This document shows, piece by piece, positions 10,977 to 46,340 of a stretch of DNA of 64,000 nt. The translations under genes were made by a program, and so were the position numbers. Position 1 is the stretch's first letter. The number at the start of each line of letters is the position of its first letter. The notes under the pieces were generated by a model. That model saw only the letters and a list, made by a program, of their open reading frames with translations, had not been told where the DNA came from and did not search any database. The DNA comes from Bacteroidales bacterium (GTDB lineage Bacteria > Bacteroidota > Bacteroidia > Bacteroidales > WCHB1-69): assembly GCA_045616665.1 (NCBI GenBank), contig JAZLHE010000056.1:691-64690 (forward strand). The letters run 5' to 3'.

Positions 10977-10978
10977 TA

Positions 10979-11836: not shown

Positions 11837-11838
11837 AT

Positions 11839-14178
11839 TTATTTAGGGATAATCAGTTTGGCGAACTTGAGCATTAACGTTTTGTTTCCGACGGTATCGA
11901 AAGCGACAAGGGCTTTTTTTTCATTGCCGCTGCCTTCGGTGGATATTACAATTCCATAGCCGAACTTGCCATGATATACCCGTTTATTGACAACAATTTG
12001 ATCGAACGTGGCCAATTCGCCGATTTGCGCCAATTCTGCTTCGGTTTTCGTCTGCACTGTCGGCTTAGGAACCACCGGACGAGATGACGGAGAATACGGA
12101 TTGGTACGGACCGTATAAGAACGGTTTTTGGCGAACGAAGGCGTTTCGGGCATAGAAAACGAACCTTTTCCTGCCGATGCCTTTCGCGTGGTATTTAAGT
12201 ATTTTTCGGGAATTTCATCCAAGAAACGACTATGTTCGGCAAATTGCAGAGAACCAAACTTATATCGGGTTTCCGCATAAGTAAGCATCACCCGTTTTCT
12301 GGCACGTGTCAGCGCCACATAAAACAAGCGGCGCTCCTCTTCCAATTCCTTTCGCGTATTGACACAAAGAGAAGACGGAAAAAGATTTTCCTCCAAACCC
12401 GCCACAAAGACATAATCAAATTCAAGACCTTTAGCCGCATGAATGGTCATCATTTTCACTTTATCCTCAGTATCATCCTTTTCATCATCATCACTCAACA
12501 AAGAAACCGTTTCCAAATAATGGTCCAATGACGGGAAATACGTACTGATAAGTTCTCCAGTAGCCTCGTTGAAGGAGGATTCGGGCTCACGCTCGGTAAA
12601 AGCCTTGATAGAATCGAGCAATTCTTCGATATTGTCTATTCTGTCTTTATCGGAAGGATCTTCCCGCAATGCACTCACAATGCCCGAAGATTCAGCGATA
12701 TGCTTAGCCAAATCGAAAGCATCGGTAGTAGGCAGGAGGGCGGTGTAACTCTGTATTCGCGCCGCAAAATCGGTCATTCTTGCCTTGGTGGGCGCATTCA
12801 CATCCAAATTAAAATCATCGGGATGGACCATCACATTCCACATCCGTTCGTGATGTTCTGCGGCACAATTCAGAAGTTTATCCACCGTTGTAGCCCCGAT
12901 TCCACGCTGCGGGTAATTAATCACACGCCGCAACGACTCTTCGTCATAATGATTGACCGCCAATCTGAAATAAGCCATTAAATCCTTGATTTCTTTTCTC
13001 TTATAGAAAGAAAGTCCTGCATAAATCTTATACGGAATATGCCGTTTAATCAGCACTTCCTCAATAGCACGCGATTGGGAATTGGTACGATACAGAATGG
13101 CAAACTGACTATGGGAAGCCTGCTCATTGACCTTGATTTCAAAAATCGCATCCGCAATGGCAAAGGCTTCCTCGGTATCGCTGCCAGTTTTGAGAATATT
13201 GATTTTCGACCCTTCCGCATTATCTGTCCAGATTTCCTTATACATCTGGTTTTTATTATTCTTGATAATCGCATTGGCCGCATTCACAATCACTTGCGTA
13301 GAACGGTAATTCTGCTCCAGCTTGATGATTTCGCACGTGGGATAATCCTGCTTGAAATTCAAGATATTTGTAATATCAGCGCCGCGGAAGGAATAAATAC
13401 TTTGCGCATCGTCGCCCACCACGCAAATATTTTGGTATGCGGCAGCCAATTTCTTGATAATCAGATATTGGGCAAAATTCGTATCCTGATACTCATCCAC
13501 TAAAATATAACGGAAACGCTGCTGGTATTTATAGAGAACATCCGGAAAATCTCTCAAGAGGACATTCATATAGTACAACAAATCGTCGAAATCCATCGCA
13601 TTGGCATTTTTCAGGCGTTGGTTATAACGCATAAAGATGTCGGCAATAAGGGGCTTGCCACTACGGGCGTCGGCCTCGCGGATTTCGGGATTTTTGGCAT
13701 AATCTTCTTCCGAAAAAAGACTTGACTTGGCGGAAGAAATACGATTTTGGATATAATTGGCCACATAAATCTTGGGGTCGAGCTGCATTTCCTTCACGAT
13801 GGACTTGATCATATTCTTGGTATCATCGGCATCGTAAACAGTTAGATTCTGGTTATATCCCAAACGGGAACCTTCCACACGGATGATGCGGTAGAAAATA
13901 GAGTGGAAAGTGCCCATCGAAACGGACTTTGCATTACTGTCTCCTACTAACTTAAAAATACGCTCCTTCATTTCGCCGGCCGCCTTGTTGGTAAAAGTCA
14001 ATGCCAAAATTTGAAACGGGCTGATTCCGCGGGTAAGCATATAGGCGATACGATAGGTTAACACGCGGGTTTTGCCCGAACCCGCGCCCGCAATCACCAT
14101 CACTGGTCCTTCTATCTGTTTTACAGCACGTTGCTGCGCATCATTGAGTTGCGATAACAATTCTTCTTCCTGATTCAT
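11839..14178 (-). CDS. UvrD/PcrA/Rep-family ATP-dependent DNA helicase
   Basis: 779 aa. Walker A AGAGSGKTRVLTYR, motif II ILVDEYQDTN, and later TIHAAKGLEF and YVALTRA. Confidence 0.93.
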   Translation of the reverse strand: MNQEEELLSQLNDAQQRAVKQIEGPVMVIAGAGSGKTRVLTYRIAYMLTRGISPFQILALTFTNKAAGEMKERIFKLVGDSNAKSVSMGTFHSIFYRIIRVEGSRLGYNQNLTVYDADDTKNMIKSIVKEMQLDPKIYVANYIQNRISSAKSSLFSEEDYAKNPEIREADARSGKPLIADIFMRYNQRLKNANAMDFDDLLYYMNVLLRDFPDVLYKYQQRFRYILVDEYQDTNFAQYLIIKKLAAAYQNICVVGDDAQSIYSFRGADITNILNFKQDYPTCEIIKLEQNYRSTQVIVNAANAIIKNNKNQMYKEIWTDNAEGSKINILKTGSDTEEAFAIADAIFEIKVNEQASHSQFAILYRTNSQSRAIEEVLIKRHIPYKIYAGLSFYKRKEIKDLMAYFRLAVNHYDEESLRRVINYPQRGIGATTVDKLLNCAAEHHERMWNVMVHPDDFNLDVNAPTKARMTDFAARIQSYTALLPTTDAFDLAKHIAESSGIVSALREDPSDKDRIDNIEELLDSIKAFTEREPESSFNEATGELISTYFPSLDHYLETVSLLSDDDEKDDTEDKVKMMTIHAAKGLEFDYVFVAGLEENLFPSSLCVNTRKELEEERRLFYVALTRARKRVMLTYAETRYKFGSLQFAEHSRFLDEIPEKYLNTTRKASAGKGSFSMPETPSFAKNRSYTVRTNPYSPSSRPVVPKPTVQTKTEAELAQIGELATFDQIVVNKRVYHGKFGYGIVISTEGSGNEKKALVAFDTVGNKTLMLKFAKLIIPK

Positions 14179-27844: not shown

Positions 27845-28141
27845 CTATAATTTGCTGGTTATATCCATACTTTCGTGAAGGATTCTGATTATCGTAACAA
27901 GGTCATCTGCTGAATATTTATAAAAAATCAAGTGCTTATGACAATGTCTGCACTTCAGGCCAGACTGTATTTCAGCGTATTCCTTGTCTGCATTGAAACT
28001 ATCTTTACAAACGCTCTCACAAGCGGTTATCAAGTCATGATAATATTGATCGGCCTGCTTCTCTGACCAGACTTCGCACGTGTAAAGCCAAATAGAATCC
28101 AAATCTTCTATGGCCTTATTTGTCAATTGATAATTAGCCAT
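27845..28141 (-). CDS. parE: Type II toxin, RelE/ParE family (ParE-like)
   Basis: 98 aa. The pattern Y.LT..A..DL..IW.YT...W...QA..Y, then [21 protein letters not shown], is typical of ParE. It overlaps the antitoxin gene by 8 nt. Confidence 0.85.
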
Positions 28142-28379
28142 TGCGATGCTTTTTCTTCAATTCTTGCAAATGTTTTTTGGAATCGAAATTCTCGCAAATA
28201 CCACTTTCTTCACCTTCGTGGATGGCAGCACTCAGTTGCTGCAGTTTTTTTTCGTTTTCCTCTAAAAGTCGCAAACCCGCACGAATCACTTCACTTGCAT
28301 TATTGTACCGCCCTGATTGGATAGTAGAACTGATGAAATTTTCAAAGTAAGGACCTAAAGCGACCGATGTATTTTTCAT
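28134..28379 (-). CDS. parD: Type II antitoxin, ParD family (ribbon-helix-helix)
   Basis: From ATG 28379: [43 protein letters not shown].., the canonical ParD N-terminus. Confidence 0.85.
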
Positions 28380-28497: not shown

Positions 28498-28703
28498 AAC
28501 TGCTCTGTCTTTTAGCATCAAAGTCCTTTTTCGTGGCAACAGATGAAAAATATGGTGCTTTTTGTTTCTAAACCGATAAATATCAATCACTTTGCCAATG
28601 AAGCAACAAAATGATTGTCAATTAAATTCATTAATAATCAGATGGTTATAAGTTAATTTTTTCCATTCTTCTATGGTTTAGCACACAGCAATAAAAAAAC
28701 GAA

Positions 28704-28973
28704 ATTATCCCTTTCTGTCTTGTAGAGAGATTCCTTCGCTACGCTTCGGAATGACGATGCGCTGCACACAAGAAAATGGCGGCGACGGAAAGTAATAACG
28801 CAACAATACTGTCGTGGTGTCGCCGCAGTAATCGCGATTGCGGCGGCATCACACACCGACCCTGATCGACCACCTTGCGCCGCCGCTTCACTATGTTCCC
28901 CGAGTGCACTCGTCATCCAGAGCGGAGCACAGCGGAGTGAAGGGGTCTCAACAAGATTAAACGGGATAATCCC
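28704..28973. repeat. MITE-like intergenic repeat, long copy
   Basis: Left end attatccctttctgtcttgtagagagattcc, right end caacaagattaaacgggataatccc, with a G+C-rich interior. The track ORFs 28671-28916 and 28913-29179 lie across it and look spurious. Confidence 0.6.
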
Positions 28974-29021
28974 GTAAAAAAATTCAAAATCTCACAAATA
29001 AGTGATTTTTGGGAAAAATGT

Positions 29022-29325: not shown

Positions 29326-30759
29326 ATGCTTTTTAACTCATTCTCCTTCGGATTCTTCCTTGTGACAGTCTATCTACTGTACTGGTTGGCCTTTAATCGC
29401 AACATAAAGTTGCGCAATTTGTTCATTTTGGTGGCCAGCTATTTTTTCTATGGCTTCTGGAATTGGAAACTACTGATATTGATTATCATCGTTTCTGCCA
29501 CCGATTTCCTCTTCGGCAATTTGATATACAAAGAGGAAAGCGAAAAACGGAGAAAACTGTATTTGACACTCGCGTTAGTCATTAATTTGGGCATACTCGG
29601 ATTTTTCAAATACTGCAATTTCTTTGTTGATAGTTTTTATTCGCTGCTTCACCTTTTCGGTGCATCTGGGACGTTCACGCCTTTCAACATCATTTTGCCC
29701 GTGGGCATCAGTTTTTACACATTCCAAGGATTGAGTAATGTATTAGATATTTACTATAGGAAGTTTGAACCGACCAAAGACCCGATTGCCTTTTGCGCAT
29801 TTTTGGCCTTTTTTCCACAGCTCATTGCCGGACCTATCGAGCGTGCGCGTGATTTGCTGCCTCAATTCTTCACTCCAAAGAAATTCAATTACGACGATGC
29901 CAGAAAGGGATTATTCCTGATTGCTGTCGGTCTTTTCAAGAAAATCATCATTGCGGACAGATTAGCGATATACGTTGACTCTGTGTATGGAAACGTGTCA
30001 GAAGTGCACGGCTTGCCAGCATTGGTTGCCGTATTATTCTTTGCATTCCAACTTTATTTGGATTTTTCAGCCTATTCGCAAATCGCCATTGGTACGGCGC
30101 GGATTTTCGGTTTCAAACTAAGCACTAACTTCAACAAGCCCTATTTGGCCACTTCTTTCAAGGACTTTTGGTCTCGTTGGCATATCACGCTCACCAGCTG
30201 GTTCCGCGACTATCTGTATTTCCCATTAGGAGGAAACAGGAGAGGTAAATTCAGAACTTATCTCAATGTGATTATCATTTTCACGGTAAGCGGACTATGG
30301 CATGGCGCATCCTGGAATTTCGTTATTTGGGGATTCTTGAACGGTATCTTCCTTGCTGTTTTCGACAAGGCATTTCATTTGAAACCGACTAAGATGTTGT
30401 CAAAGATCATTTGTTGTCTTTTCGTCACAGCGGCTTGGGCCTTATCTTTGATATTTTTCCGTGCAGGCACCTTTAGCGAGGCTATGACAATGTTTGGAAA
30501 TCTGGGCTTCGGAAATTCAGCCGATTTGCTCGCACACGGAATGGATGCCGTAGAACTCAAGTTCACATTCTGGCTGTTGGCAGGTTTGATGTTGATAGAA
30601 CTAATCTTGAAAAACAAACAGGAAAAAATAGAGAACTTTTTCTTCAATAAATTTTTCATGTTCCGATGGGCCATCTACCTCATCATTATTTTGGTTACCA
30701 TCTATTTGGGTGTATATGGGATCGGCAGCGACAATTCTTTTATTTATTTCCAATTCTAA
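29326..30759 (+). CDS. MBOAT-family membrane O-acyltransferase (AlgI/DltB-like)
   Basis: 477 aa, polytopic. Conserved-His region VSGLWHGASWNFVIWG. Typical MBOAT N-terminus MLFNSFSF..FL. Confidence 0.9.
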   Translation: MLFNSFSFGFFLVTVYLLYWLAFNRNIKLRNLFILVASYFFYGFWNWKLLILIIIVSATDFLFGNLIYKEESEKRRKLYLTLALVINLGILGFFKYCNFFVDSFYSLLHLFGASGTFTPFNIILPVGISFYTFQGLSNVLDIYYRKFEPTKDPIAFCAFLAFFPQLIAGPIERARDLLPQFFTPKKFNYDDARKGLFLIAVGLFKKIIIADRLAIYVDSVYGNVSEVHGLPALVAVLFFAFQLYLDFSAYSQIAIGTARIFGFKLSTNFNKPYLATSFKDFWSRWHITLTSWFRDYLYFPLGGNRRGKFRTYLNVIIIFTVSGLWHGASWNFVIWGFLNGIFLAVFDKAFHLKPTKMLSKIICCLFVTAAWALSLIFFRAGTFSEAMTMFGNLGFGNSADLLAHGMDAVELKFTFWLLAGLMLIELILKNKQEKIENFFFNKFFMFRWAIYLIIILVTIYLGVYGIGSDNSFIYFQF

Positions 30760-32567: not shown

Positions 32568-32630
32568 CCGCCAACTCGGTGAACAAAATTTGGCCAACTA
32601 GGTGAACGAGATCTGGCCGACTAGGTGAAC
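32568..32630 (+). repeat. Three direct repeats of GCC(A/G)ACT(A/C)GGTGAAC with 23-bp period
   Basis: ccgccaactcggtgaac (32568-84), tggccaactaggtgaac (32591-607), tggccgactaggtgaac (32614-30). They end about 50 nt upstream of the -7 box at 32680-32687. Confidence 0.8.
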
Positions 32631-32711
32631 GAAACAAAGAAAAATAGCGGATTTATTTACGTATATCATTTATTTTTAGTATTTTTGCGCCCGAATTACA
32701 AATCTAAACAA

Positions 32712-33992
32712 ATGGAAGATTATAGAGTACGAATTGCAGACCAATTACTATCTGAAAGTTTAGAGGCATTGGGGGCCGTCATTGTGCAGGGGACGAAGTG
32801 GTGTGGCAAGACCACCACGTCTGTTCATCATGCCGGAAGTGTTCTCTATATGGATGATCCGACGCAAAAGGAGCAGAATCTTTCGCTGGCGCAGACCAAC
32901 ATAAAGCGTTTGTTGGAAGGTGCCACTCCACGAGTGATTGACGAGTGGGAGTTAGCGCCCCAACTGTGGGATGCTGCACGTTTTGAGATTGACCATCGGC
33001 AAGTGCATATCGGACAATTTATTTTTACGGGTTCAGCCGTTCCAAAGGAGAAAGACAGGAAACGGATTTTTCACAGCGGCGCCGGTCGCTTCGACTGGAT
33101 CACAATGCGCACCATGTCACTTTGGGAATCAGGAGACAGCACCGGTGACGTCAGTCTCCAAGCATTATTCAATGGAGCGATGCCTGATGGTGCTGCCACA
33201 ATAGATTTGGACAGATTAGCATATCTTACTTGCCGTGGCGGATGGCCGGGAACACTTTCATTATCTGAGCGAGCCGCACTGCATGTTCCGCATGCCTACC
33301 TGAAAGCAGTGCTCAATTCGGATATATCCAAGGTGGATGATGTTAGACGCGATGCCAATACGATGTCGCGCATCATCCGAAGTCTGGCCCGTAACCAAGG
33401 CGAACAGATTCCTTACACCACTATTCGTGCAGACATAATCAACAATGAAAACACAACCATCAGCACAGACACGGTGGAGGACTATGTAAAGGTGCTGAAC
33501 AAGATATTTTTAGAAGAGGACATGCGGGCTTGGAATCCCAATTTGCGTAGCAAAACGGCCATACGGACCACTGACACTCGCTATTTTGTTGATCCCAGTA
33601 TCGCCACATCGGCATTGGGAATCGGACCAAAGGATTTGTTGAATAATTTGGCTGACTTTGGCTTCTACTTTGAAACCTTGGCTGTTCGCGATTTGCGTGT
33701 TTATGCCGACGCCTTGGATGGGGAGGTCTTCCACTTTCGCGACAAAAACGGCTTGGAGTGTGACGCTGTCCTCCATCGTCGCAATGGGGCATACGGACTT
33801 ATTGAAATCAAATTGGGAGGCGCAGATAATATAGAAAAAGGTGCAATCACCCTTAAAACATTATCCGCCAAGATTGACACTGAAAAGATGAACGCGCCAT
33901 CGTTTATGATGGTACTGACAGGAATAGGCCAATATGCCTATCGCCGTCTGGATGGTGTGTATGTCGTGCCCATCGGCTGCTTGAAACCGTGA
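32712..33992 (+). CDS. AAA-type ATP-binding protein (AAA_14/DUF4143-like)
   Basis: Walker A GTKWCGKTTT. The C-terminal half is typical of DUF4143 ATPases. A tatttttg box at 32680-32687 lies inside the GTG-started track ORF, so ATG 32712 (MEDYRVR..) is preferred. Confidence 0.75.
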   Translation: MEDYRVRIADQLLSESLEALGAVIVQGTKWCGKTTTSVHHAGSVLYMDDPTQKEQNLSLAQTNIKRLLEGATPRVIDEWELAPQLWDAARFEIDHRQVHIGQFIFTGSAVPKEKDRKRIFHSGAGRFDWITMRTMSLWESGDSTGDVSLQALFNGAMPDGAATIDLDRLAYLTCRGGWPGTLSLSERAALHVPHAYLKAVLNSDISKVDDVRRDANTMSRIIRSLARNQGEQIPYTTIRADIINNENTTISTDTVEDYVKVLNKIFLEEDMRAWNPNLRSKTAIRTTDTRYFVDPSIATSALGIGPKDLLNNLADFGFYFETLAVRDLRVYADALDGEVFHFRDKNGLECDAVLHRRNGAYGLIEIKLGGADNIEKGAITLKTLSAKIDTEKMNAPSFMMVLTGIGQYAYRRLDGVYVVPIGCLKP

Positions 33993-34008: not shown

Positions 34009-34958
34009 CTAATTGCCTGATTTCCGTTCCATATAGTCTCTGAAGGCGTAAAGCGGGATGTTCTCCAACCACGGCTGGTCTTCGTAGTTTTTCATGCTCA
34101 GCCGGATGCCTTTGAGGTCGGGGTTGTTCTCTATGAAGATCTTTAATGATTTCGCCCTGACATTCTCTTCGGCTTTCACCTCCACGGGATACACATTGTC
34201 GTCGAGCTGAATCACGAAGTCGAGTTCTATGCGCGACTTCTCCACGGAATGATAATATACGGGGATGCCGGTGGTGGCGAGTTGCGACTCCACATATACT
34301 TCGGTGAAAGCCCCTTTATACTCCTTGAAGATGTTGTTGCCGACCATCATCTGGCTTGCGGGGATGTCGGCCATTGCGCCCATCAGCCCGACATCGAGGA
34401 TGAAGAGTTTGAAGGCGTTGGCATCTTCATAGAACTTCAGCGGCATCCTGACTGCGTTCACGCAGTTGATTTTATATACGATTCCCGCATCGACAAGCCA
34501 TTGGATTGACTCCTCGAATTCGGAGGCTCTGGCTCCGTGCTTCATAACACCGAAAATGAACTTCTTGTTCTCCTTGGTCAGCTGCGATACGAGGCTCTGC
34601 CACATGCCGCAATGTGATATTCGGGCGCATCTTCGGCCAAGGCCTTCAGCCTTGTCAGCGCAACGGGGCAGTCTTGTATTTCGTCTAAAATAACGAGAGT
34701 GTTGCCGGGGACTATGTCAACATCGGTTATGGCCGATAGACCTTTCAGTAACCTGTCCGCGGACTTCTCCGCCGTAAAAAGCTGACATGCGGCATCGTTT
34801 CGGTCGAAGCTGACAAAGGATATGCTTTTATATTCGTTTTTCCCGAATTCCTTCAGCAGCCATGTCTTGCCAACCTGCCGCGCTCCGAACAGCACTAACG
34901 GTTTCCTGTCTTTAGAAAGTTTCCATTTTATTAAGTCGTTGTATAAATATCGCCTCAT
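34009..34958 (-). pseudogene. Disrupted AAA/DUF4143-type ATPase gene (frameshift plus internal deletion)
   Basis: The 126-aa ORF carries the N-terminal AAA part (GARQVGKTWLL, VILDEIQ, ..HIAACG). The 198-aa ORF carries the C-terminal DUF4143-like part (SQLTKENKKFIFG..). The two are in different frames and overlap at 34578-34605. The combined length is roughly 100 aa short of the intact relative at 32712. Confidence 0.7.
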
Positions 34959-35192: not shown

Positions 35193-35306
35193 AACTCAAA
35201 AAAAACTACTTCCATTTCTCGGCTGTGGAATTTTTATGTATTTTTGCGCCTTGTTTTTGCCTTCAATCGGCAAAAAGTGAAATCACGGATTATTAACCAA
35301 TTTGGA

Positions 35307-36347
35307 ATGAAAGAAAAAAACAACATAGTACAAAGCACGATCGATGCATCTTTTCTTGCTGAAGTGAAGCACATTGTTGAGCAAGGTCGCCAACAAGCAT
35401 ACGCCTCCGTAAGTCAGCTGATGATTGAAACCTATTGGAAAATAGGAGAACGTATTGTTTTGCAAGAGCAAAAAGGATCTAATCGTGCCGAATATGGAAC
35501 TCAACTTATTGCTCAACTTTCAGAGGAGTTGACGCGAACATACGGAAAAGGATTCAGTGGAAGATATTTGAGAGCATTTAGACAGTTTTATCTTGTTGTT
35601 CCTGATTTGGAGATTTGGAAATCGCGATTTCCAAATCTTACTTGGACCCATATTCTTAAAACTTTACGAGTTGAGGATCCTACAGCTGTACGTTGGTATC
35701 TGTCAACAGCTTCACAAGAGATGTGGAGCGTGCGCACACTCGACCGCAATATTTCCACGCAATACTATGAGCGTCATTTTAAGCAACCGCAGTTGGTTGA
35801 AAATACCGAGAATGACAATAAGGTTGACAAATTGGAAATTCTAAAAAACCCAATAATGGCAGAATTTCTTGGATTCAAGCAAAATACCGACTTTACGGAA
35901 ACCGATTTGGAAAAAGGCCTGATTCAGCATCTTCAAGACTTTCTTGTTGAATTAGGCAGGGGATTTGCATTTGTTGCACGGCAACAGCATATTTTCACCG
36001 ATGCCGGTGACTTTTATATCGATTTGGTATTCTACAACTACATCTTGAAATGTTTCGTGCTGATAGATTTGAAAAAAGGTCAGATAACCCATCAGGATGT
36101 TGGGCAAATGGATATGTATGTGCGTATGTACGACGATTTGAAACGCACGGAAGGCGACAACCCCACCATAGGTATAGTACTTTGCAGCGAAACGAGCAAA
36201 GACATTGCACGCTATTCCATATTACGGGATAGCGATAATTTATTTGCCGCTAAATATATGCCCCTAATGCCTACCGAAGAAGAACTTCGCAGGGAGATAG
36301 AGGCTCAAAAAGAATTGTTTAATTTGCAAAATGACAAAATAGAATAA
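35307..36347 (+). CDS. DUF1016/YhcG-family PD-(D/E)XK nuclease-like protein, copy 1
   Basis: The N-terminal region ..AYASVSQLMIETYWKIGERIV..GSNRAEYGTQLI.QLS..L....GKGFS..YLRAFRQFY is typical of YhcG. The C-terminal core is FYIDLVFYNYILKCFVLIDLKKGQITHQDVGQM. A -7 box lies at 35239-35246. Confidence 0.8.
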   Translation: MKEKNNIVQSTIDASFLAEVKHIVEQGRQQAYASVSQLMIETYWKIGERIVLQEQKGSNRAEYGTQLIAQLSEELTRTYGKGFSGRYLRAFRQFYLVVPDLEIWKSRFPNLTWTHILKTLRVEDPTAVRWYLSTASQEMWSVRTLDRNISTQYYERHFKQPQLVENTENDNKVDKLEILKNPIMAEFLGFKQNTDFTETDLEKGLIQHLQDFLVELGRGFAFVARQQHIFTDAGDFYIDLVFYNYILKCFVLIDLKKGQITHQDVGQMDMYVRMYDDLKRTEGDNPTIGIVLCSETSKDIARYSILRDSDNLFAAKYMPLMPTEEELRREIEAQKELFNLQNDKIE

Positions 36348-36375
36348 AAAAGATATTTTAAACTAACATATTATC

Positions 36376-36399
36376 AATCATAGCGTTTGCTATTTGTTC
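36376..36399 (+). repeat. 24-bp direct repeat, copy A (aatcatagcgtttgctatttgttc)
   Basis: Identical 24-mer at 37616-37639. This copy ends 6 nt before ATG 36406. Confidence 0.9.
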
Positions 36400-36405
36400 T
36401 AAATC

Positions 36406-37509
36406 ATGAAAGAAAAAAAGACAGATATTGTTCAAGACGAGATTGGTCGTGCGGATATGCTTGCATCTCGCATTGAGGCACTGATTACGGAAGCACGTAC
36501 CAAAGTCGTTTCGTTTGTGAATACCGCTATGGTATATACCTATTATGAGATAGGACGGTATATCGTTGAAGATGAACAAAATGGAGACAACCGAGCTTCT
36601 TACGGCAAAGAAGTGTTGGAGAATTTGTCGTGCAGACTCACAGATAAATTTGGCAAAGGTTGGTCTGCTGCCAATCTCAGGGCTATGCGTCAATTTTATG
36701 CGGTGTATTCAAAAACGCTAACCACTGGTCAGCAAATTGGCAATGAAAACGCTAACCGTTGGTCAGCAAAATTGACTGATCAAAATATAACACCTGAGTT
36801 TAAATTGTCGTGGACTCATTATCAAATTTTAATGAGAGTTGAAAATCCACAAGCTCGAAGTTTTTATGAAATAGAATGTTATAACCAACATTGGGACAAG
36901 CGTTATCTGCAACGGCAAATTGGCAGCAGTTTGTACGAGCGTTTGGCATTAAGCCGGAACAAAAATGAAATAATCCGTTTGGCCAAAGAAGGTCAAACCA
37001 TAGAGAAACCGTCTGACGTAATAAAAGACCCGATTGTATTGGAATTTATGGGTCTTAAATCCGATGCTTCTTATTCCGAGACATCACTTGAAAGCGCGAT
37101 AATCGGCAAACTGCAACATTTTTTGTTAGAAATGGGCAAAGGATTCCTGTTTGAGGCACGACAGAAAAGATTTTCGTTTGAAGAACGCAATTTTTATGTC
37201 GATTTGGTACTGTACAACAGGCTTTTGCAATGCTATGTGCTGATAGATTTGAAAATGGACGACCTGACGCATCAGGATTTGGGACAGATGCAGATGTATG
37301 TGAACTACTACGACCGGTATGTGAAACAAGATTTCGAGAAGCCGACAATCGGCATTTTGCTGTGTGAACAAAAAGACGATATGCTGGTTGAATTAACATT
37401 GCCAAAAGACGCTAACATTTATGCGCAGCAATATGCACTCTATCTGCCAGACAAAGATCTCCTGCAAAAAAAATTACGGGAATGGATTGATGAGCAAAAC
37501 GAAAATTAA
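36406..37509 (+). CDS. DUF1016/YhcG-family PD-(D/E)XK nuclease-like protein, copy 2
   Basis: Same architecture as copy 1 but strongly diverged: FYVDLVLYNRLLQCYVLIDLKMDDLTHQDLGQM. Confidence 0.8.
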   Translation: MKEKKTDIVQDEIGRADMLASRIEALITEARTKVVSFVNTAMVYTYYEIGRYIVEDEQNGDNRASYGKEVLENLSCRLTDKFGKGWSAANLRAMRQFYAVYSKTLTTGQQIGNENANRWSAKLTDQNITPEFKLSWTHYQILMRVENPQARSFYEIECYNQHWDKRYLQRQIGSSLYERLALSRNKNEIIRLAKEGQTIEKPSDVIKDPIVLEFMGLKSDASYSETSLESAIIGKLQHFLLEMGKGFLFEARQKRFSFEERNFYVDLVLYNRLLQCYVLIDLKMDDLTHQDLGQMQMYVNYYDRYVKQDFEKPTIGILLCEQKDDMLVELTLPKDANIYAQQYALYLPDKDLLQKKLREWIDEQNEN

Positions 37510-37615
37510 CCATCTTTGCAGTCACAAATCAGATACTGCGATTCTTATTAAATCATTAAACAACAAACAATTAACAAAAACAGAAAGATAAACATTCAAC
37601 TGATATATTATAATA

Positions 37616-37639
37616 AATCATAGCGTTTGCTATTTGTTC
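37616..37639 (+). repeat. 24-bp direct repeat, copy B
   Basis: Perfect match to 36376-36399. It lies 176 nt upstream of the methyltransferase ATG. Confidence 0.9.
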
Positions 37640-37815
37640 GAGAAACTCTGAAACGTAGGAAATTTCAAAAGTTGATACCGAGGACAGATTGCGAATGTTC
37701 ACGCTTACGTGGGCATTCTTGTCTGTATCAATCGGTTTCCTACGACCGCAGAGTTTGGGCAAGATTAGCCCACGTTCTGTGTTCGTAGGGAACAAGTGCC
37801 AGACGCTAAAAGCAA

Positions 37816-38919
37816 ATGCGTATGGCAAACAAGAATTTATCGCAGGCAAAAGCGAAAAAAAACGATGAGTTTTATACTCAGTATGCGGACATTCAAAATG
37901 AAATAAACGCCTATTTGGAATATAATCCGGATGTGTTTCGAGACAAAACTATCCTTCTTCCGTGTGACGATCCCGAATGGTCAAACTTTACAAAATTCTT
38001 TGCACAGAATTTTGAAAATTTCGGCTTGAAAAAGCTGATTAGCACAAGTTATGCTATAGAAAGCAAAAACATAGACCTGAACTGGCAGCCAACTTTGTTT
38101 GAACAGGAAAATCCCAACTTTGATTTGGATAAGACCAAAATCAAAGGTAAGATTTTCACGCTTGAACGTGACACCAATGCCAGTGGAAAGATTGACATTG
38201 AAGATTTGGAATGGCAATACTTAGAAGGCGACGGCGACTTCCGCAGTGATGAAGTAAAGGCCTTGCGAGACGAAGCCGACATAATCATCACCAATCCACC
38301 GTTTTCGTTGTTTACATCTTTTTTGATGTGGATTATGGAAGCAGATAAAAAGTTTCTGATTTTAGGTAATATGAATGCTATTGCCTACAAAGAAATTTTT
38401 CCAAAGATTAAGGAGAATAAAATGTGGCTGGGTGTAAAAAGCGGTGCCAGAGAATATTTGAAACCCAATGGTGGTATCCAAAAAATGGGCAACACCTATT
38501 GGTTTACAAATCTTGAGCATGGGCGTCGTCATCAACCTATGAAACTGATGACATTGGATGATAATATCAAGTACAGCAAGCACAAAGAAGTAAAAAATGT
38601 TGGTTATAAAAGGTATGTGAATTTTGATGCTATTGAGATTCCCAAATCTGATGCTATACCGAGTGATTACAATGGTGTGATGGGTGTCCCTATTTCTTGG
38701 CTGGACAAATATTGTCCAGAACAATTTGAGATTATTGGAATGGCCAATGGTGGAAATCTTGGCATAGAATGCGGCGTTAGTTCAAATTTATCCGAAGAAG
38801 ATTGTAAAAAGCTATTTAAAGAGGATAAAGGTTTTAGACGAGGAAAATTGTGCTATAGAAATGATGATGGAAAGTTAATCAGCCTTTTCGCAAAAATATT
38901 AATCCGTAAAAAACAATAA
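37816..38919 (+). CDS. EcoRI-family N6-adenine DNA methyltransferase
   Basis: The N-terminal signature [21 protein letters not shown]....[19 protein letters not shown] resembles the EcoRI_methylase family. Catalytic motif IV is IIITNPPFS. Confidence 0.8.
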
Positions 38920-38920
38920 A

Positions 38921-40078
38921 ATGAAAACGACATTAAAAGAGTACACAATTCAGGAAGTTTGTGAAGGTTTCTTATACAACGAATTAGAAGGCAAAGGTTT
39001 GTTCGGCTTGGGTGGTCAATTGACAATCCAGCCCGAATACCAAAGAAACTACATTTACAATGATGGCAAAAAGGACGTGGCCGTTATAGAATCCGTGCTG
39101 AAAGGTTATCCACTGGGGCTCATCTATTTCAACAAAGTAGATGACAGGCTTGAAGTGCTGGACGGGCAACAACGCATCACTTCCTTGGGTCGGTTTGTCA
39201 CCGGAAAGTTTGCCATTAAAGACGCCAACGGAATGGAACAGTACTTTTCAAGTTTGGCATCGGACAAACAACAACTTATCAACAACTCAAAACTGTTGGT
39301 TTATATTTGTGAAGGAACCGAAACAGAAATAAAAGAGTGGTTCAAGATCATCAATATTGCCGGTGTTCCATTGAAACCGCAAGAGCTGTTGAACGCGGTA
39401 TATTCCGGGCCGTTTGTAACCAAAGCAAAAGAAGTGTTTAGCAATTCACAAAACGCAAACATCCAGAAATGGAGTGCATTCATCAAAGGTGTTGCCAACC
39501 GCCAAGACTTTTTGGAATGCGCCTTGGATTGGGTGAGCAAAGGAAATATTGAAAATTATATGGCCACCCATCGTTCGGATACGGACATCAATGAAATGGA
39601 AACCTATTTCAATAGCGTGATTGGTTGGATTGACAGTGTGTTTCCAACAGTTAAAAAAGAGATGTGCGGTTTGGAGTGGGGTCGTCTGTATGAAACGTAT
39701 CATAAAAATCCGTACAATAAAATTAAAGTCGGTTCAGAAGTTGACCGATTATATGCAGACGAATATGTTGCCAACAAAAAAGGAATATTTGAATATGTTT
39801 TGGGCGGCTGCGCTGATGATAGGTTGTTGGAAATTCGTGTTTTTGACAATGCAACAAAGAATACCGTATATCATAAACAGACAACCGATGCCATTGCGAA
39901 AGGCATATCCAACTGCCCGTTGTGTGCTATGGGTACGAATGCTAACAGAACAAGAATCTGGAAGTTGAATGAAATGGATGCCGATCACGTCACTGCTTGG
40001 AGCAAAGGTGGCAGCACCTCCATCGGAAATTGTGAAATGCTTTGCCAAACGCACAACCGAGCCAAAGGAAATAAATAA
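38921..40078 (+). CDS. DUF262 (ParB-like, DGQQR) domain protein with C-terminal HNH nuclease
   Basis: QPEYQRNY and [13 protein letters not shown] are DUF262 hallmarks. The C-terminus CPLC....[33 protein letters not shown] is an HNH motif. The start is 1 nt after the methyltransferase stop. Confidence 0.8.
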
Positions 40079-40092
40079 AGAGAATGTTCTTT

Positions 40093-40122
40093 CCCCTCGT
40101 CATCCGCGAGGGGCGTTTTTTT
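40093..40122 (+). terminator. Rho-independent terminator after the MTase / DUF262-HNH pair
   Basis: 7-bp stem cccctcg / cgagggg followed by T7. Confidence 0.75.
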
Positions 40123-40143
40123 GCTTTTCCGCTCCTCAAAATC

Positions 40144-40422
40144 TTATTTGAACAAATCAGAATGAGAACCCGTGCGGAAAAGATTCAAAATTTGCAGCTC
40201 TTCATCGGATTTGCTATACAACAACAACCAATCCGGCTGAATATGGCATTCTCGAACACCATCTTTGTTTCCGACAAGAATATGATCACGATTGGCTGGA
40301 GAAAGGGGTTCGTCGTTGGCAAGCCGAAATACTATTTCGTTTAATTTTTCTTCTGGCAGTCCTCTTTTACGCGCCAATTTCAAGTCCTTCTTGTATTGAG
40401 TTGAAATTACAATTGTTCTCAT
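40144..40422 (-). CDS. yafQ: Type II toxin, YafQ/RelE family
   Basis: 92 aa. RDHILVGNKDGVRECHIQPDWLLLY....L.L.RTGSHSDLF matches the YafQ signature. Confidence 0.85.
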   Translation of the reverse strand: MRTIVISTQYKKDLKLARKRGLPEEKLNEIVFRLANDEPLSPANRDHILVGNKDGVRECHIQPDWLLLYSKSDEELQILNLFRTGSHSDLFK

Positions 40423-40625
40423 TGTATTGCTTTCAGGTATTCTTCAAAACTATTGCAACGGGTGCCGCCACCATTTTTTATTTCTTCAATGGCCTGCGCG
40501 GTGGCATCATTGAATGAGGTCTCCTGCTTAATGAAAATACCCGAATTTATCAGACTGTTTATTAGTTTTCTGATAGTTTCGTTACTCGCATCATAACTTA
40601 CTGTTATCGTTTCCATTTCTCTCAA
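40419..40625 (-). CDS. Putative cognate antitoxin of the YafQ-like toxin
   Basis: A 65-68 aa ORF overlapping the toxin start by 4 nt (ATGA). Family not recognised. A minus-strand tacttttg box lies at about 40640-40647. Confidence 0.55.
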   Translation of the reverse strand: MREMETITVSYDASNETIRKLINSLINSGIFIKQETSFNDATAQAIEEIKNGGGTRCNSFEEYLKAIQ

Positions 40626-40695
40626 AATTTAGAGTTGCAAAAGTACTCAAAATACAAACAAAATACACCTCCACGTTGATACTTTTTGAATTTTT

Positions 40696-40838
40696 TAAAA
40701 AATCAAGTGCTTATAGCAATGTCTGCACTTTAGACCTTTTTCTTCAATTCTTGCAAATGGTTTTTGGAATCGAAATTCTCGCAAATGCCGCTTTCTTCGC
40801 CTTCGCGGATGGCAGCACTCAGTTGCTGCAGTTTTTTT
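40696..40838 (-). pseudogene. Relic of a second parDE locus (internally deleted, both ends truncated)
   Basis: 40696-40737 matches 27920-27961 (within parE). 40737-40838 matches about 28150-28250 (within parD). The ~190 bp that separate these blocks in the intact locus are missing. Confidence 0.8.
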
Positions 40839-40849
40839 GAATGATTTTT

Positions 40850-41595
40850 TTAATACAGCAAACCGAACATCCAAAGAGGAATGCGATGACCATGACCAAG
40901 TTCAGCACCTGCCACCGCCAAATAGCTGTCAGGAAGGTCTTTAATCTGCTCAGAACTTTTGCTTCCGCCTCCGACTTCAAACAGATATTTGCCGTCAACA
41001 AGAAAGTCTCCTTTTGGAGGATAATGCACTTTGGCCACTGCGGAAAGTTGGTTTAAGAAAAATGTCTCACGCAAGGTGCCCACATTCGCCATCGGTGAAA
41101 GTGCATACATCAAGTTGGTGTTACCCACATAAAGTTTGTCGGGTTTGGACATCCGCTTTAAGGATTTGCTTTCAGAACTCAGCAACGCCATCAAACCTGC
41201 TCGTTCAAGCAGGTCCAACATTTTTAATCCTTGATCCCTTGATGTGTTCAATTGGGCATATACTTCGTTCATTTTGGGTGTTTGAGGCACTTTGTCAGCC
41301 AAAATCATCAACATTTGTTTGATTTTTTGAATTGTAGCGTATGAAACATCTTCAATACTTGGCAAATCAGACTCCAATACCTGTTTAATCATACTTTGTA
41401 ACCTATCTGGGAATCCATCTCCTTCCTCAGAGAAAAAGGGATAATAGCCAAATCGGAGATATGACTCGAAAAGAGGAAGAACTTTTATCGAGGATGATAT
41501 ATCAAGTGCTATGGTCAAATGTTTTTCCAACAAATTAGGAAGAGATATTTTTCCCAGTTTGTAATGACAGCTGAACGCCAAGAATTCCCTGAATA
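40850..41595 (-). pseudogene. 5'-truncated AAA-family ATPase gene remnant
   Basis: Only a C-terminal portion is plausible (..FGYYPFF....LESDLP....KPDKLYVGNTNLMYAL...FFLNQL....HRIPLWMFGLLY*). No Walker A is present. The N-terminal ~45 aa of the track ORF overlap the exonuclease gene and look like read-through. Confidence 0.55.
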
Positions 41596-41600
41596 GATTC

Positions 41601-42098
41601 CTATTCCAAAATCCGCAACGCGATGGCGGCACATGCCTCGGCATCCGCCAACGCGTGATGATGATGCTCCAGATTATAGCCGCAAGCCGCGGAAACAGTA
41701 TGTAACTGCAGGTTCTCCAAGGTTTTGCCAAAATGCCTTTTGGCCGCTCTATAGGTACAATAAAACTTATAATCAGGATAATCCATTTGATATAACTTAA
41801 AAACCGCCTTCAAACAGCTCTCATCAAACTGGCTGTTGTGTGCCACCATCGGCAATCCCTCAATTTTTGGAGCTACCCGCGCCCATACTTTCGGGAAAAT
41901 CGGGGCATCGTCGGTATCTTCATTCGACAAGCCGTGTACCCGCTGACAATAATAATTATAAAAATTAGGCTCAGGTTTGATCAAACTATAAAAACTGTCC
42001 ACCACCACGCCGTCACGCACTACCACTACGCCCACACTGCACACACTACTCGGTGCGAAATTGGCAGTCTCAAAATCAATGGCAGCAAAATCCTTCAT
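41601..42098 (-). CDS. DEDDh 3'-5' exonuclease (DnaQ/epsilon-like), stand-alone
   Basis: 165 aa. Exo I AIDFETAN, Exo II VAHNSQFDESCL, Exo III HHALADAEACA. A minus-strand tatttttg box lies at about 42160-42180. Confidence 0.88.
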   Translation of the reverse strand: MKDFAAIDFETANFAPSSVCSVGVVVVRDGVVVDSFYSLIKPEPNFYNYYCQRVHGLSNEDTDDAPIFPKVWARVAPKIEGLPMVAHNSQFDESCLKAVFKLYQMDYPDYKFYCTYRAAKRHFGKTLENLQLHTVSAACGYNLEHHHHALADAEACAAIALRILE

Positions 42099-42286
42099 TT
42101 TCTATCGTCATTTTTAATTTACAAAGATACAACATAAAATAATACTATGTGAATTATCTTGTGCAAAAATAGCACAAGGGTGTGCCCTTTTGGGGCACAC
42201 GACTGAAAGACGTGGCATCGCTTTCGCTAATTTCTGAGACTCAAGATTTCACACCAAACATGCCCATCTGCACTAACCACCTGAAA

Positions 42287-42532
42287 AACCAAATTATCCC
42301 TTTAAGTCTTGTAATGAGATTCCGCCTTCCGCTTCGCTTCGGCGGAATGGCGGTGAATTAGGCGGCTCCACTCACATACTTTTACCTCTTCCGTTGCGCC
42401 GCCGCCCTGACGTAGGTATGACTCGTCGCCATTCCGATGTTTCCAACGTATGGTGGAAACACCGGAATCTCAATATGCTTAAACGGGATAATTCCGTGAT
42501 TTTTTATATCTCAAAAATTTTGTGTAAGTTTG
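42287..42532 (+). repeat. ~245-bp direct repeat, left copy (MITE-like element plus promoter box)
   Basis: Near-identical to 44771-45016 (I saw only a handful of mismatches or indels). It contains the inverted termini attatccctttaag / cttaaacgggataat and ends in the TAnnTTTG box taagtttg (42525-32). Confidence 0.9.
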
Positions 42533-42552
42533 CTTTCAAAATTAAATGCGAT

Positions 42553-44079
42553 ATGATTATAATTATTATAGTTGTTGTTTTTATAATTTTCCCATATCTT
42601 AAAAATAAATACAAGGAAAACCATTCAAAAGAAGAAAGCATTGCGGCAAGAAAAAATGAGACTAACAGGCTTGATTATGAGACTGAACGAAAGCATTTAA
42701 AACGATTAGGCATTTGCTTTTTGATACTTCTGTTTTTGGGAACAAGTGTTTTTATCGGTATTATTTCTGAATTAAAATCATCTTTTGAGATTATTTTACT
42801 GGTTGACTTCTTCTATTTCATTCCTACGATTCTATTAGTGAAAATAGCTCGCAAAATGCAACAATTGATTTTTCTTGACGAACATCGTCACCTTGATGAA
42901 TCGCAAAATGAAAAAGAAGCTCAGCAAAATGTTATTGAAAAAAAATATAAACCACTATCCGAAATAGCAGATAGCATTATTGTTTGCAAGCAAGAGAATG
43001 AATTAACGACTTGTTTATTTAACGAACAGGAATTAAAGGAATTTTATCCACACACACAAACGTGGAGAATTAAAAATTGGCATGCAGATGAATTTGATTA
43101 TGTGAAAAAGGGGGAAGAATTACTCACCTTGGAAGCATTATACGATTCCAACCATCATTTTTCAATAAAAGCTCCATCTTCTGGATTTTTACACATAAAA
43201 CAATTAAATTTTCATGATTATCATCAAGATGATTTGATTTGTGAAATATATAGCAATATGGATTCTCTTATTGATACATTATCTGTTAATGAAATCAAAG
43301 TTGTAAAAGACGATTTTTCAGAAGACATTATTATCAGAGGAGAGAAAATGGCGGGTTCGCAAAATGGTTTTATCATTGGCGACATAAGTATTAATTTTGA
43401 AAACAGAATGGGAGAGTATGGTTTGATAGTAAAGTTTACAAGAAAAACAATAAACATTAGAAAAAATGACACACTTCAATTATTATTTGATAACGGAACA
43501 ACTATCTCATTAAATACCACTTCAAGTCCAATTAAATGCGTTAACTGCAAAGAAGATTCCGTTGTTAGATTTGGGTTGAATGCAGAGCATATAAATTTAT
43601 TTAAAGATTCATATCTGTTAAAATGGCAAATTAAATCTAGTGATAGTGAAATTATCGGAAGAAATGAAATTCATCACCAAGATAAGGGAATAGGTTTAGT
43701 GTTTAATGATTTCATTATTAAATTCGAGAATGAGGTTAAGAATAATATTCCAGAATCAGAAATAATAAAATGCAAACAAACTTTTGAACCCGAAAAACAA
43801 GAAAACGCATTAGAATGCTGTTATGTGTACTTAATGAAAGACTGCGCAAATCATTTCTTTAAAATAGGCATTTCCAACAATCCAAAATATCGTGAAAAGA
43901 CTCTTCAAAGTGAAAAACCTACAATAGAACTGATATGTAACAAGAAATTTCCGTCTCGGAAAATGGCTAGGGCTATTGAATCTGCATTACACACAACATT
44001 TTCAAATCAACACATTCGTGGCGAATGGTTTGACTTGAATGAAAATGACGTAGCTGAGGTAATCAATACTCTTTCCTAA
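42553..44079 (+). CDS. Membrane-anchored protein with C-terminal T5orf172 (GIY-YIG-like) domain
   Basis: I prefer ATG 42553, downstream of the repeat-borne promoter. Three N-terminal hydrophobic helices. A central segment resembles a lipoyl/biotinyl barrel-sandwich hybrid (W...DYVKKGEELLTLEA....SIKAPSSGFLHI). The C-terminus CYVYLMKD..HFFKIGISNNPKYREKTL.....IRGEWFDL matches T5orf172/MUG113. Confidence 0.7.
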   Translation: MIIIIIVVVFIIFPYLKNKYKENHSKEESIAARKNETNRLDYETERKHLKRLGICFLILLFLGTSVFIGIISELKSSFEIILLVDFFYFIPTILLVKIARKMQQLIFLDEHRHLDESQNEKEAQQNVIEKKYKPLSEIADSIIVCKQENELTTCLFNEQELKEFYPHTQTWRIKNWHADEFDYVKKGEELLTLEALYDSNHHFSIKAPSSGFLHIKQLNFHDYHQDDLICEIYSNMDSLIDTLSVNEIKVVKDDFSEDIIIRGEKMAGSQNGFIIGDISINFENRMGEYGLIVKFTRKTINIRKNDTLQLLFDNGTTISLNTTSSPIKCVNCKEDSVVRFGLNAEHINLFKDSYLLKWQIKSSDSEIIGRNEIHHQDKGIGLVFNDFIIKFENEVKNNIPESEIIKCKQTFEPEKQENALECCYVYLMKDCANHFFKIGISNNPKYREKTLQSEKPTIELICNKKFPSRKMARAIESALHTTFSNQHIRGEWFDLNENDVAEVINTLS

Positions 44080-44583: not shown

Positions 44584-44770
44584 CTATTTTTTTGCAAAAA
44601 TACAAAAAAACTAACAAATTTCACAACAAACGACAAAAAAAGAAAAAACAAATCAGAAAATTTTCATTTCCACAGAATTGAAATTTTCAACTTCCTCGCA
44701 TAATCTTGCATATTATTTGTTTCTGACAAAAGACAACATAAAGTGTTGATTACAAGCTTGTTGTTTAATG

Positions 44771-45016
44771 AACCAAAATTATCCCTTTAAGTCTTGTAAT
44801 GAGATTCCGCCTTCCGCTTCGCTTCAGCGGAATGGCGGTGAATTAGGCGGCTCCACTCACATACTTTTACCTCTTACGTTGCGCCGCCCCCTGACGTAGG
44901 TATGACTCGTCGCCATTCCGATGTTTCCAACGTATGGTGGAAACACCGGAATCTCAATATGCTTAAACGGGATAATTCCGTGATTTTTTATATCTCAAAA
45001 ATTTTGTATAACTTTG
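44771..45016 (+). repeat. ~245-bp direct repeat, right copy (carries the miaB promoter box)
   Basis: See the left copy. It ends in taactttg (45009-16), 4 nt before the miaB ATG. Confidence 0.9.
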
Positions 45017-45020
45017 CAAT

Positions 45021-46340
45021 ATGAAAAATTTATTTATCGAAACATACGGTTGTCAAATGAATGTTGCTGATAGTGAGGTGGTTGCATCTATCTTATCAGC
45101 AGAATACCAAATTTGCGACAACATCAAGAACGCCGACCTCATCCTTTTAAACACTTGTTCTGTTCGCGATCACGCCGAACAGCGAATCAGAAAACGCCTT
45201 AACGAATTAGGAGCCCTGAAAAAGAAAAAGGCCGGACTTCAAATCGGTTTGCTCGGTTGCATGGCCGAGCGTGTCAAGGAAAAGCTGCTTCACGAAGAAA
45301 CAGCATTGGACTTCATCGCCGGACCCGACGCTTACCGCAGCCTGCCTGCTCTAATACAAGAATCTGCCTTTGGCAAAACCGCCTTCAATGTTTTGCTCTC
45401 CACCGAAGAAACATACGACGACATTGAGCCCATTCGCTACGACACCAACGGCATTTCGGCATTTATCTCCATCATGCGCGGCTGTAACAATTTTTGCAGC
45501 TATTGCGTCGTGCCTTATACCCGCGGTCGCGAGCGCAGCCGCAGCTCTGAAACCATCATTCGCGAAGCACGGCAATTAATAGATCAAGGCTATAAGGAAA
45601 TCACTTTGTTGGGACAGAATGTCAATTCATATTGCTCGAATGAAAACGGCGAAGTGGTCAATTTCGCCAAATTGCTCGAAAAAGTGGCCTTGCTTTCGCC
45701 GCAAGTACGTGTGCGTTTTGCTACCTCCCATCCCAAAGACATTTCCGATGAGCTCATCGAAACCATCGCCAAATACGACAACTGCTGCAAATACATTCAT
45801 CTGCCCGTCCAGGCAGGAAGCAACGTGATGCTCAAACGGATGAATCGCGTCTATACCCGCGAATACTACCTGGAACGCATCGCCACCATCAAACGACTGA
45901 TTCCCGATTGTGCCATTGCCACAGACATTATCGCCGGCTTCAGCGGCGAAACCGAAGAAGACCACCAGGCCACTTTGTCGCTGATGAAAGAGGTGGGCTA
46001 CTGCGCCGCCTATATGTTCAAATACTCTGAACGCGACTGCACGATGGCTGCCAAACGCTTCCCCGACGACATTCCCGACGAGGTCAAGGGCCGCCGCCTG
46101 GAAGAAATCATCGCACTGCAACAAGAGTTGTCATTGGCACACAACCAAAAAGACATAGGCAAAACTTTTGAAGTGCTGGTGGAAGGCGCCTCTAAACGCG
46201 ATGCCAACGAATATTTCGGTCGCAATAGTCAAAATAAAGTCATCATATTCCCTAAAGGAAATGCCCAAATCGGCAAATACGTAATGGTGACCGTGCAATC
46301 CTGCTCACCCGCTACGCTGAAAGGCGTTTTGGCCAAATAA
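45021..46340 (+). CDS. miaB: tRNA-2-methylthio-N6-dimethylallyladenosine synthase MiaB
   Basis: 439 aa. N-terminal ETYGCQMNVADSE, radical-SAM cluster GCNNFCSYCVVPYTRGRERS, C-terminal TRAM domain. Confidence 0.95.
   Translation: MKNLFIETYGCQMNVADSEVVASILSAEYQICDNIKNADLILLNTCSVRDHAEQRIRKRLNELGALKKKKAGLQIGLLGCMAERVKEKLLHEETALDFIAGPDAYRSLPALIQESAFGKTAFNVLLSTEETYDDIEPIRYDTNGISAFISIMRGCNNFCSYCVVPYTRGRERSRSSETIIREARQLIDQGYKEITLLGQNVNSYCSNENGEVVNFAKLLEKVALLSPQVRVRFATSHPKDISDELIETIAKYDNCCKYIHLPVQAGSNVMLKRMNRVYTREYYLERIATIKRLIPDCAIATDIIAGFSGETEEDHQATLSLMKEVGYCAAYMFKYSERDCTMAAKRFPDDIPDEVKGRRLEEIIALQQELSLAHNQKDIGKTFEVLVEGASKRDANEYFGRNSQNKVIIFPKGNAQIGKYVMVTVQSCSPATLKGVLAK

Follow-up and report, generated by a model that had tools for sequence, protein, structure and literature searches.

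DUF262 is a ParB-like module at the N terminus of the nucleases GmrSD, BrxU and SspE, where it carries a DGQQR motif and is joined by a helical linker to a C-terminal His-Me-finger nuclease, DUF1524. These enzymes act alone on modified DNA or are tuned by it. In BrxU, the substitutions Q101A and R102A in DGQQR leave nucleotide binding in place, whereas hydrolysis, DNA cleavage and phage defence are lost, and nucleotide binding turns the dimer into a monomer; in SspE, DGQQR is needed for nucleoside triphosphate (NTP) hydrolysis and defence, its arginine being essential for GTP hydrolysis. The EcoRI restriction–modification (R-M) system is a two-gene Type II module whose methylase belongs to Pfam family PF13651 and carries an NPPF motif, and whose endonuclease, R.EcoRI, is a PD-(D/E)XK enzyme. 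KpnI, Hpy99I, PacI and SphI are Type IIP enzymes from Type II pairs with a beta-beta-alpha-metal HNH site and a Cys4 zinc, and none of them has been described with a ParB or DUF262 domain. Here we analysed a 64,000-nucleotide (nt) stretch of contig JAZLHE010000056.1 from a Bacteroidales bacterium (the window), in which an EcoRI-family methylase gene, open reading frame 1 (ORF1), directly precedes ORF2, a gene whose product joins DUF262 to an HNH nuclease. The locus is an ordinary member of a very common, already catalogued R-M family, and we consider it likely that it works as a self-contained, mobile, methylation-protected Type II-like cassette by the mechanism proposed below.

ORF1 (37816–38919, forward strand) encodes a protein of 367 amino acids (aa) that Pfam, PADLOC and its conservation profile identify as an EcoRI-family N6-adenine DNA methyltransferase. 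The Pfam EcoRI_methylase profile (PF13651) covers it from position 1 to 345 of 345 (E 1.9e-111) and the PADLOC profile MTase_II (PDLC03297) matches with E 1.7e-78. Together with the full-length EcoRI_methylase match, the catalytic motif NPPF (aa 160–163, nt 38293–38304) shows that the methyltransferase motifs expected of a Type II system are intact; NDEFYTQY is also present in the translation, and the conservation profile reveals a hypervariable insert at about aa 305–360. The TAA stop codon of ORF1 ends at 38919 and the ATG of ORF2 starts at 38921 on the same strand, leaving a single spacer base between two separate, adjacent genes for methyltransferase and endonuclease, which is the Type II layout. 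The two-gene unit is closed by a feature resembling an intrinsic terminator (40093–40123, forward strand), in which a hairpin at 40093–40113 with eight pairs, six of them G-C, and a 5-nt loop is followed by a T run.

ORF2 (38921–40078, forward strand, 385 aa), the predicted restriction endonuclease, begins with a ParB/Srx-like DUF262 domain, continues through a helical middle region and ends in a zinc-ribbon HNH. Pfam places GmrSD_N (DUF262) at aa 35–161 (nt 39023–39403, E 9.9e-21), a region with an invariant QPEYQRNY and, within a 12-residue motif, DGQQR (nt 39161–39175). HNH (PF01844) was matched at aa 350–385 (E 6.1e-7), as was HNH_5, whereas the profile search gave no Pfam match to DUF1524 in ORF2. 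The zinc-ribbon HNH (nt 39914–40075) comprises CPLC (aa 332–335), DADH (353–356), N370, C371, C375 and H378-N379, and follows the pattern CPLC...DADH..W..GG...N..LC..HN..K. When ORF2 was aligned with its close family and a second, sister subfamily, Q41, R42, D81-G82-Q83-Q84-R85, C332, C335, D355, H356, N370, C371, C375 and N379 were invariant, a set that takes in the two signature motifs of DUF262, the catalytic residues of HNH and the four-cysteine zinc site; D353 and H378 were invariant in the close family but variable in the second subfamily. An earlier note, made from the sequence alone, had named the methylase with its NDEFYTQY and NPPF motifs, the 1-nt spacing, the DUF262 and HNH parts of ORF2 and the terminator. 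All of these readings were borne out, and the profile searches that it had proposed returned EcoRI_methylase, DUF262 and HNH alike, with scores well beyond what chance would give.

An AlphaFold2 model of ORF2 built from the two-subfamily alignment (predicted local distance difference test score (pLDDT) 84.8, predicted template modelling score 0.69) replaced an earlier one from a shallow alignment, in which the HNH region was poor (pLDDT 70). The predicted fold has an alpha/beta N-terminal domain, an all-helical middle (aa ~134–345) and a beta-beta-alpha unit at aa 352–383. Foldseek comparison with the PDB matched the N-terminal side to CTP-bound ParB (6sdk and 7bnr, probability 0.97–0.98), to Noc and PadC, and to BrxU (7p9k, probability 0.97 in one run and 0.66 in another), and the C terminus to the Gme HNH nuclease (4h9d, 0.96–0.98) and EcoKMcrA (6ghc, 0.89). 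Solved Type II restriction enzymes were absent from these PDB matches.

The pairing of the two genes is obligate and ordered. A search of one genome per species found 213 stretches that encode a relative of ORF2, and our locus analyses used the best 80 of these, in which the nuclease is 63–98% identical to ORF2. Wherever the upstream DNA is long enough to tell (73 of 73 loci), an EcoRI-family methylase gene immediately precedes the nuclease gene in the same orientation; the other seven have fewer than 440 bases upstream of the nuclease, six of them fewer than 100. Of 69 complete pairs, 55 have an intergenic distance of −4 to +13 nt, so coupled, methylase-first expression is conserved. Plasmid-borne relatives that are only 37–43% identical are annotated with the same methylase neighbour, for example in Gordonia, Mammaliicoccus, Aeromonas, Sulfitobacter and Variovorax. 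In the second subfamily, which is large, about 40% identical and 363–375 aa in length, EcoRI_methylase again lies directly upstream, including on metagenome contigs, where 75 of 80 loci have the methylase. Nuclease and methylase are therefore co-inherited in genome loci, on plasmids, in the second subfamily and in a phage, as in Type II systems.

Two further observations concern the methylase. In one protein of the representative library (P0185), EcoRI_methylase, GmrSD_N and HNH follow one another in a natural single chain of 688 aa. Its methylase part has FPSF in place of the expected NPPF and, judging from this substitution, may be inactive and kept only for DNA recognition. Among the loci with little upstream DNA, six contigs (L054, L055, L058, L072, L079 and L080) break off within the 3′ end of the methylase gene, 33–94 nt before the nuclease start, and one (L035) ends 437 nt upstream. 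The six come from three Muribaculaceae, one Duncaniella (same family), one Porphyromonadaceae and one unclassified Bacteroidales; contig ends inside the methylase may reflect strain-level methylase polymorphism that breaks assemblies.

The family is already catalogued and extremely common. In PADLOC, the REase_II profile PDLC03418 ('Type II restriction enzyme') aligns aa 8–385 of ORF2 with positions 8–372 of 372 (E 1.7e-86), which places the endonuclease, over its full length, in a curated Type II family. The best match to this profile is the second subfamily, at up to 448 bits. Because ORF2 matches PDLC03418 and ORF1 matches MTase_II, a defence-finder would call the locus an ordinary Type II R-M system, and we see no architectural difference between the studied pair and the one that these two profiles describe. 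The PADLOC R-M profiles presumably descend from REBASE-based sets. A word-indexed protein search found at least 8,000 clusters related to ORF2, the best 120 of which are full-length matches, 70–98% identical, that share both Pfam domains; the names of cluster members were uninformative. RefSeq calls the relatives 'DUF262 domain-containing protein' and 'adenine-specific methyltransferase EcoRI family protein'. Among 50%-identity representatives, an exhaustive search found 432 with E <1e-30, and most of the full-length ones listed are 36–50% identical and 360–420 aa long. The description of the pair as atypical in the earlier note is not supported by these matches. The note had also left open whether the combination is catalogued: it is, as Type II in PADLOC, which comes near the note's own refutation clause, a listing of this architecture as a characterised Type II system, although we identified no biochemically characterised member.

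The cassette is also horizontally mobile, since it is found on small and large plasmids, in a Flavobacterium phage and in varied defence-type neighbourhoods. Nucleases from many phyla are 63–74% identical, and chromosomes as well as plasmids and a phage carry them. The best 80 loci span Bacteroidota, Chloroflexota, Bacillota, Alphaproteobacteria, Actinomycetota, Patescibacteria, Kiritimatiellia, Melainabacteria-type lineages and others, and plasmid copies range from a 9-kb Moraxella plasmid to Enterococcus faecium plasmids of ~240 kb. The phage copy (L089, positions 10219–12581 of the record) is carried by the Flavobacterium siphophage vB_FspS_laban6-1; its nuclease is 69% identical to ORF2, its two genes overlap by 4 nt, and the pair adjoins the tail tape-measure gene on the strand opposite to its neighbours. 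Cassettes of the second subfamily (L082–L084, L085, L086 and L088) have defence-type neighbours that include a Piwi-domain (prokaryotic Argonaute-like) gene, an Abi_2 gene (L087) and a nucleotidyltransferase/HepT pair.

The locus shares with EcoRI the methylase family, the NPPF motif and the two-gene Type II organization, but its nuclease is DUF262-HNH in place of PD-(D/E)XK. With GmrSD, BrxU and SspE it shares the N-terminal ParB-like DUF262 with DGQQR, the helical linker and a C-terminal His-Me-finger nuclease, but that nuclease is a classical zinc-ribbon HNH (PF01844), the protein is short (385 aa, compared with ~580 aa for BrxU and 560–771 aa for SspE chains), and it has a cognate methylase where those enzymes act alone. 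The HNH site and Cys4 zinc resemble those of KpnI, Hpy99I, PacI and SphI, enzymes not described with a ParB-like part. In a 2008 fold census, no named, characterised HNH subfamily apparently has the DUF262-HNH architecture. R.AccI was considered as a characterised relative and rejected, as the census lists AccI under 'unknown fold' and not under HNH. Weaker, partial PADLOC matches cover only the DUF262 part of ORF2 and involve NsnA, PD-T4-2_A and HEC-05/06. The profiles of Menshen NsnA and of PD-T4-2_A match DUF262 and the helical region that follows it (E 3.7e-29 and 9.4e-12), a combination termed ParB-DUF262 plus ParBDB in the literature. Unlike Menshen NsnABC and PD-T4-2_A, however, ORF2 has its own HNH and a methylase partner, and the NsnA match is partial; no NsnB or NsnC partner is present downstream, where the terminator is followed by a YafQ toxin pair on the opposite strand.

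In the mechanism that we propose, the methyltransferase would be transcribed and translated first and would place N6-methyladenine (m6A) on a specific site in host DNA. The nuclease would be translated from the same mRNA by coupling and would cut DNA not carrying this methyl group; its HNH active site, with a single metal, would be held by the Cys4 zinc ribbon. With one HNH site per chain, it is probably dimeric; both this dimeric cutting and its sensitivity to methylation are inferred. The ParB/Srx-like DUF262 domain and the helical region behind it most likely bind DNA and, since DGQQR is invariant, the domain probably also binds and hydrolyses nucleotide, which would gate dimerisation or cleavage as in BrxU and SspE. 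Judging from conservation, DGQQR is almost certainly functional in this family, because it is invariant among proteins that otherwise differ at ~60% of positions. A nucleotide-gated step in an ORF2-type nuclease, suggested by analogy with BrxU and SspE, is nevertheless a tentative proposal, to which we give somewhat less than even odds. We give similar odds to the specific version in which the ParB/Srx NTP switch, the one that also powers GmrSD, BrxU and SspE, would control dimerisation, clamping or methylase hand-over before the HNH domain cuts unmethylated DNA.

Several points weigh against a Type II-like cassette of this kind. Type II enzymes by definition need no nucleotide, a clause on which the invariant DGQQR would cast doubt for the ORF2 family. 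NCBIfam has no model for either protein, and we found no paper on this pair or on the mode of action of the nuclease in the literature searched. A sequence search of the PDB returned no significant relative, its only relevant match being 24 residues of BrxU (E 0.95). Every Foldseek E-value was above 1e-3 and only the probabilities were high, so the structural resemblance is at the level of fold.

The same data could also fit a methylase-guided, Type III-like complex. Here the nuclease would have little or no specificity of its own and would be recruited or licensed by the methylase at an unmethylated site, after which its ParB-like domain would use nucleotide to clamp or move before HNH cutting. 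The nuclease is indeed better conserved than its own methylase in 94% of 2,346 locus pairs (mean identity 69% versus 59%), and the Spearman correlation between methylase and nuclease identity is only 0.23. In the closest relative (L001), the nuclease is 98% identical while the methylase is a mosaic relative to the window (92% identical up to 38432, 76% over 38500–38732 and unalignable over 38733–38894), which implies recombination inside the methylase gene. The single-chain fusion of methylase, DUF262 and HNH would suit such a complex, as would the fact that the ParB-fold matches are CTP-dependent DNA clamps. Most of the extra methylase divergence, however, is concentrated in the variable-length insert at aa ~305–360 and in two loops, the core being about as conserved as the nuclease, and for this reason we do not take the divergence to prove that specificity lies in the methylase alone. 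With PADLOC classing the nuclease as an ordinary Type II enzyme, and fusions as rare as 1 in 150 representatives, we regard a methylase-guided complex as unlikely.

Quite improbable, in our judgement, is a hybrid of the SspE kind, in which DUF262 would sense host m6A made by the methylase and this signal would tune the NTPase and the nuclease against unmarked invader DNA. The GTPase of SspE, a DUF262 enzyme, is stimulated about threefold by host-type phosphorothioate-modified DNA and DGQQR is invariant in the ORF2 family, but ORF2 differs from SspE and GmrSD in nuclease domain and protein size, and its profile match is to Type II enzymes while DUF262 defence sensors match weakly; the sequence data do not separate such a hybrid from plain methyl-blocked cutting. 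The earlier note had offered a choice between a methylation-protected restriction system and a type-IV-like sensor tuned by self-methylation. The former is the better supported, through the pairing in all 73 informative loci, its persistence in relatives of about 40% identity, with 75 of 80 second-subfamily loci keeping it, and the natural fusion; the latter is disfavoured and gained no positive support. Even harder to credit is a modification-dependent (Type IV) nuclease beside an unrelated orphan methylase. The described DUF262 enzymes GmrSD, BrxU and SspE are modification-dependent or modification-sensing, and some databases use 'McrA' for relatives of ORF2, but against this stand the ordered, coupled pairing throughout the family and its ~40%-identical subfamilies, the existence of a fusion protein and a C-terminal domain that is not DUF1524. 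On sequence grounds, the pairing reads as the signature of a functional R-M module and not of a Type IV enzyme that happens to lie beside a methylase. A methylation-protected Type II-like cassette thus remains our preferred reading.

Site avoidance gave a candidate recognition sequence that we rejected. In the window, GTMKAC (AccI-type) occurs 0 times against 21.7 expected, each of GTATAC, GTCGAC, GTAGAC and GTCTAC being absent, whereas GTTAAC, GTCAAC, GTGCAC and GTACAC occur at expectation. Other strongly avoided words are CTCGAG (0 versus 4 expected), CATATG (1 versus 15) and CATG (observed/expected (O/E) 0.32). Across the 80 related loci, GTMKAC has an O/E of 0.71 and is, narrowly, the most depleted of 96 degenerate palindromes, an effect seen mostly in Bacteroidota. 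In a control set of 80 second-subfamily loci, most of which have record names that point to rumen metagenomes, the same depletion was seen (GTMKAC 0.65, GTATAC 0.30, CATATG 0.31 and CTCGAG 0.40). Because loci with the other subfamily avoid the same words, GTMKAC was discarded as the site of the studied pair and the avoidance is left as a property of the host, not tied to the cassette; R-M systems that target the avoided sites probably exist, or long existed, in the host. The EcoRI site GAATTC is mildly depleted (O/E 0.49 in the window and 0.75–0.91 in related loci), and a gapped-palindrome scan for the recognition site gave no informative signal.

The extent of the cassette can be read from its close relatives. 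DNA homology with L001–L003 starts at about 37366, 37550 or 37576 and ends at 40079–40124, which gives a common cassette of about 37550–40124. It includes a non-coding leader (37550–37815, forward strand) that is part of the DNA shared with these relatives and travels with the cassette. Within the leader, 5′ of the methylase gene, is a 31-nt element (repeat family D8, 37609–37639), a further copy of which (36369–36399) lies 5′ of the second of two DUF1016 genes. These two genes (35244–36347 and 36406–37509) are in tandem directly upstream of the R-M pair and each encodes 367 aa with DUF1016_N and YhcG_C (PD-(D/E)XK) domains.

More broadly, the cassette sits among accessory genes, including one for an RNase T-like exonuclease, between an MBOAT-family gene (29326–30759) and a radical-SAM/TRAM gene whose Pfam domains are MiaB-like (45021–46340). 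Three AAA_14/DUF4143 ATPase genes or remnants lie in this region (32625–33992; 34009–34958, reverse strand; and 40850–41731, reverse strand). Of these, one is intact; another is broken, as if by a frameshift, into two overlapping ORFs (34578–34958 and 34009–34605); and one is truncated, with only a weak, partial DUF4143 match. On the reverse strand within 40144–40625, a 68-aa ORF with no Pfam match, probably the antitoxin, overlaps by 4 nt the start of a YafQ-family toxin gene (92 aa, E 9e-30); this pair converges on the R-M terminator. Direct repeats at 27917–28251 and 40692–40838, 89–95% identical and 12.6–12.8 kb apart, bracket a block with the MBOAT-family gene, the ATPases, the DUF1016 genes, the R-M pair and the toxin pair. 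A further pair of direct repeats of ~250 nt, 96–98% identical (42284–42533 and 44769–45017, with a partial copy at 28695–28975), brackets a T5orf172/MUG113-domain gene (42394–44079) and a small ORF. The downstream copy immediately precedes the radical-SAM/TRAM gene, an arrangement that looks like an insertion that duplicated the leader of that gene.

The locus itself calls for no new category, and possible nucleotide gating is the only part with real potential for novelty. Among the R-M nuclease architectures in public data this is one of the commonest, and its ParB-like NTPase motif is intact. If the switch is functional, the DUF262 module would be used on both sides of the divide between modified and unmodified DNA, and this family of 385-aa proteins would offer a small and easy model for studying it. 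Such nucleases would then mirror the modification-dependent DUF262 enzymes as their methylation-sensitive counterparts, blurring the boundaries between Types II, III and IV.

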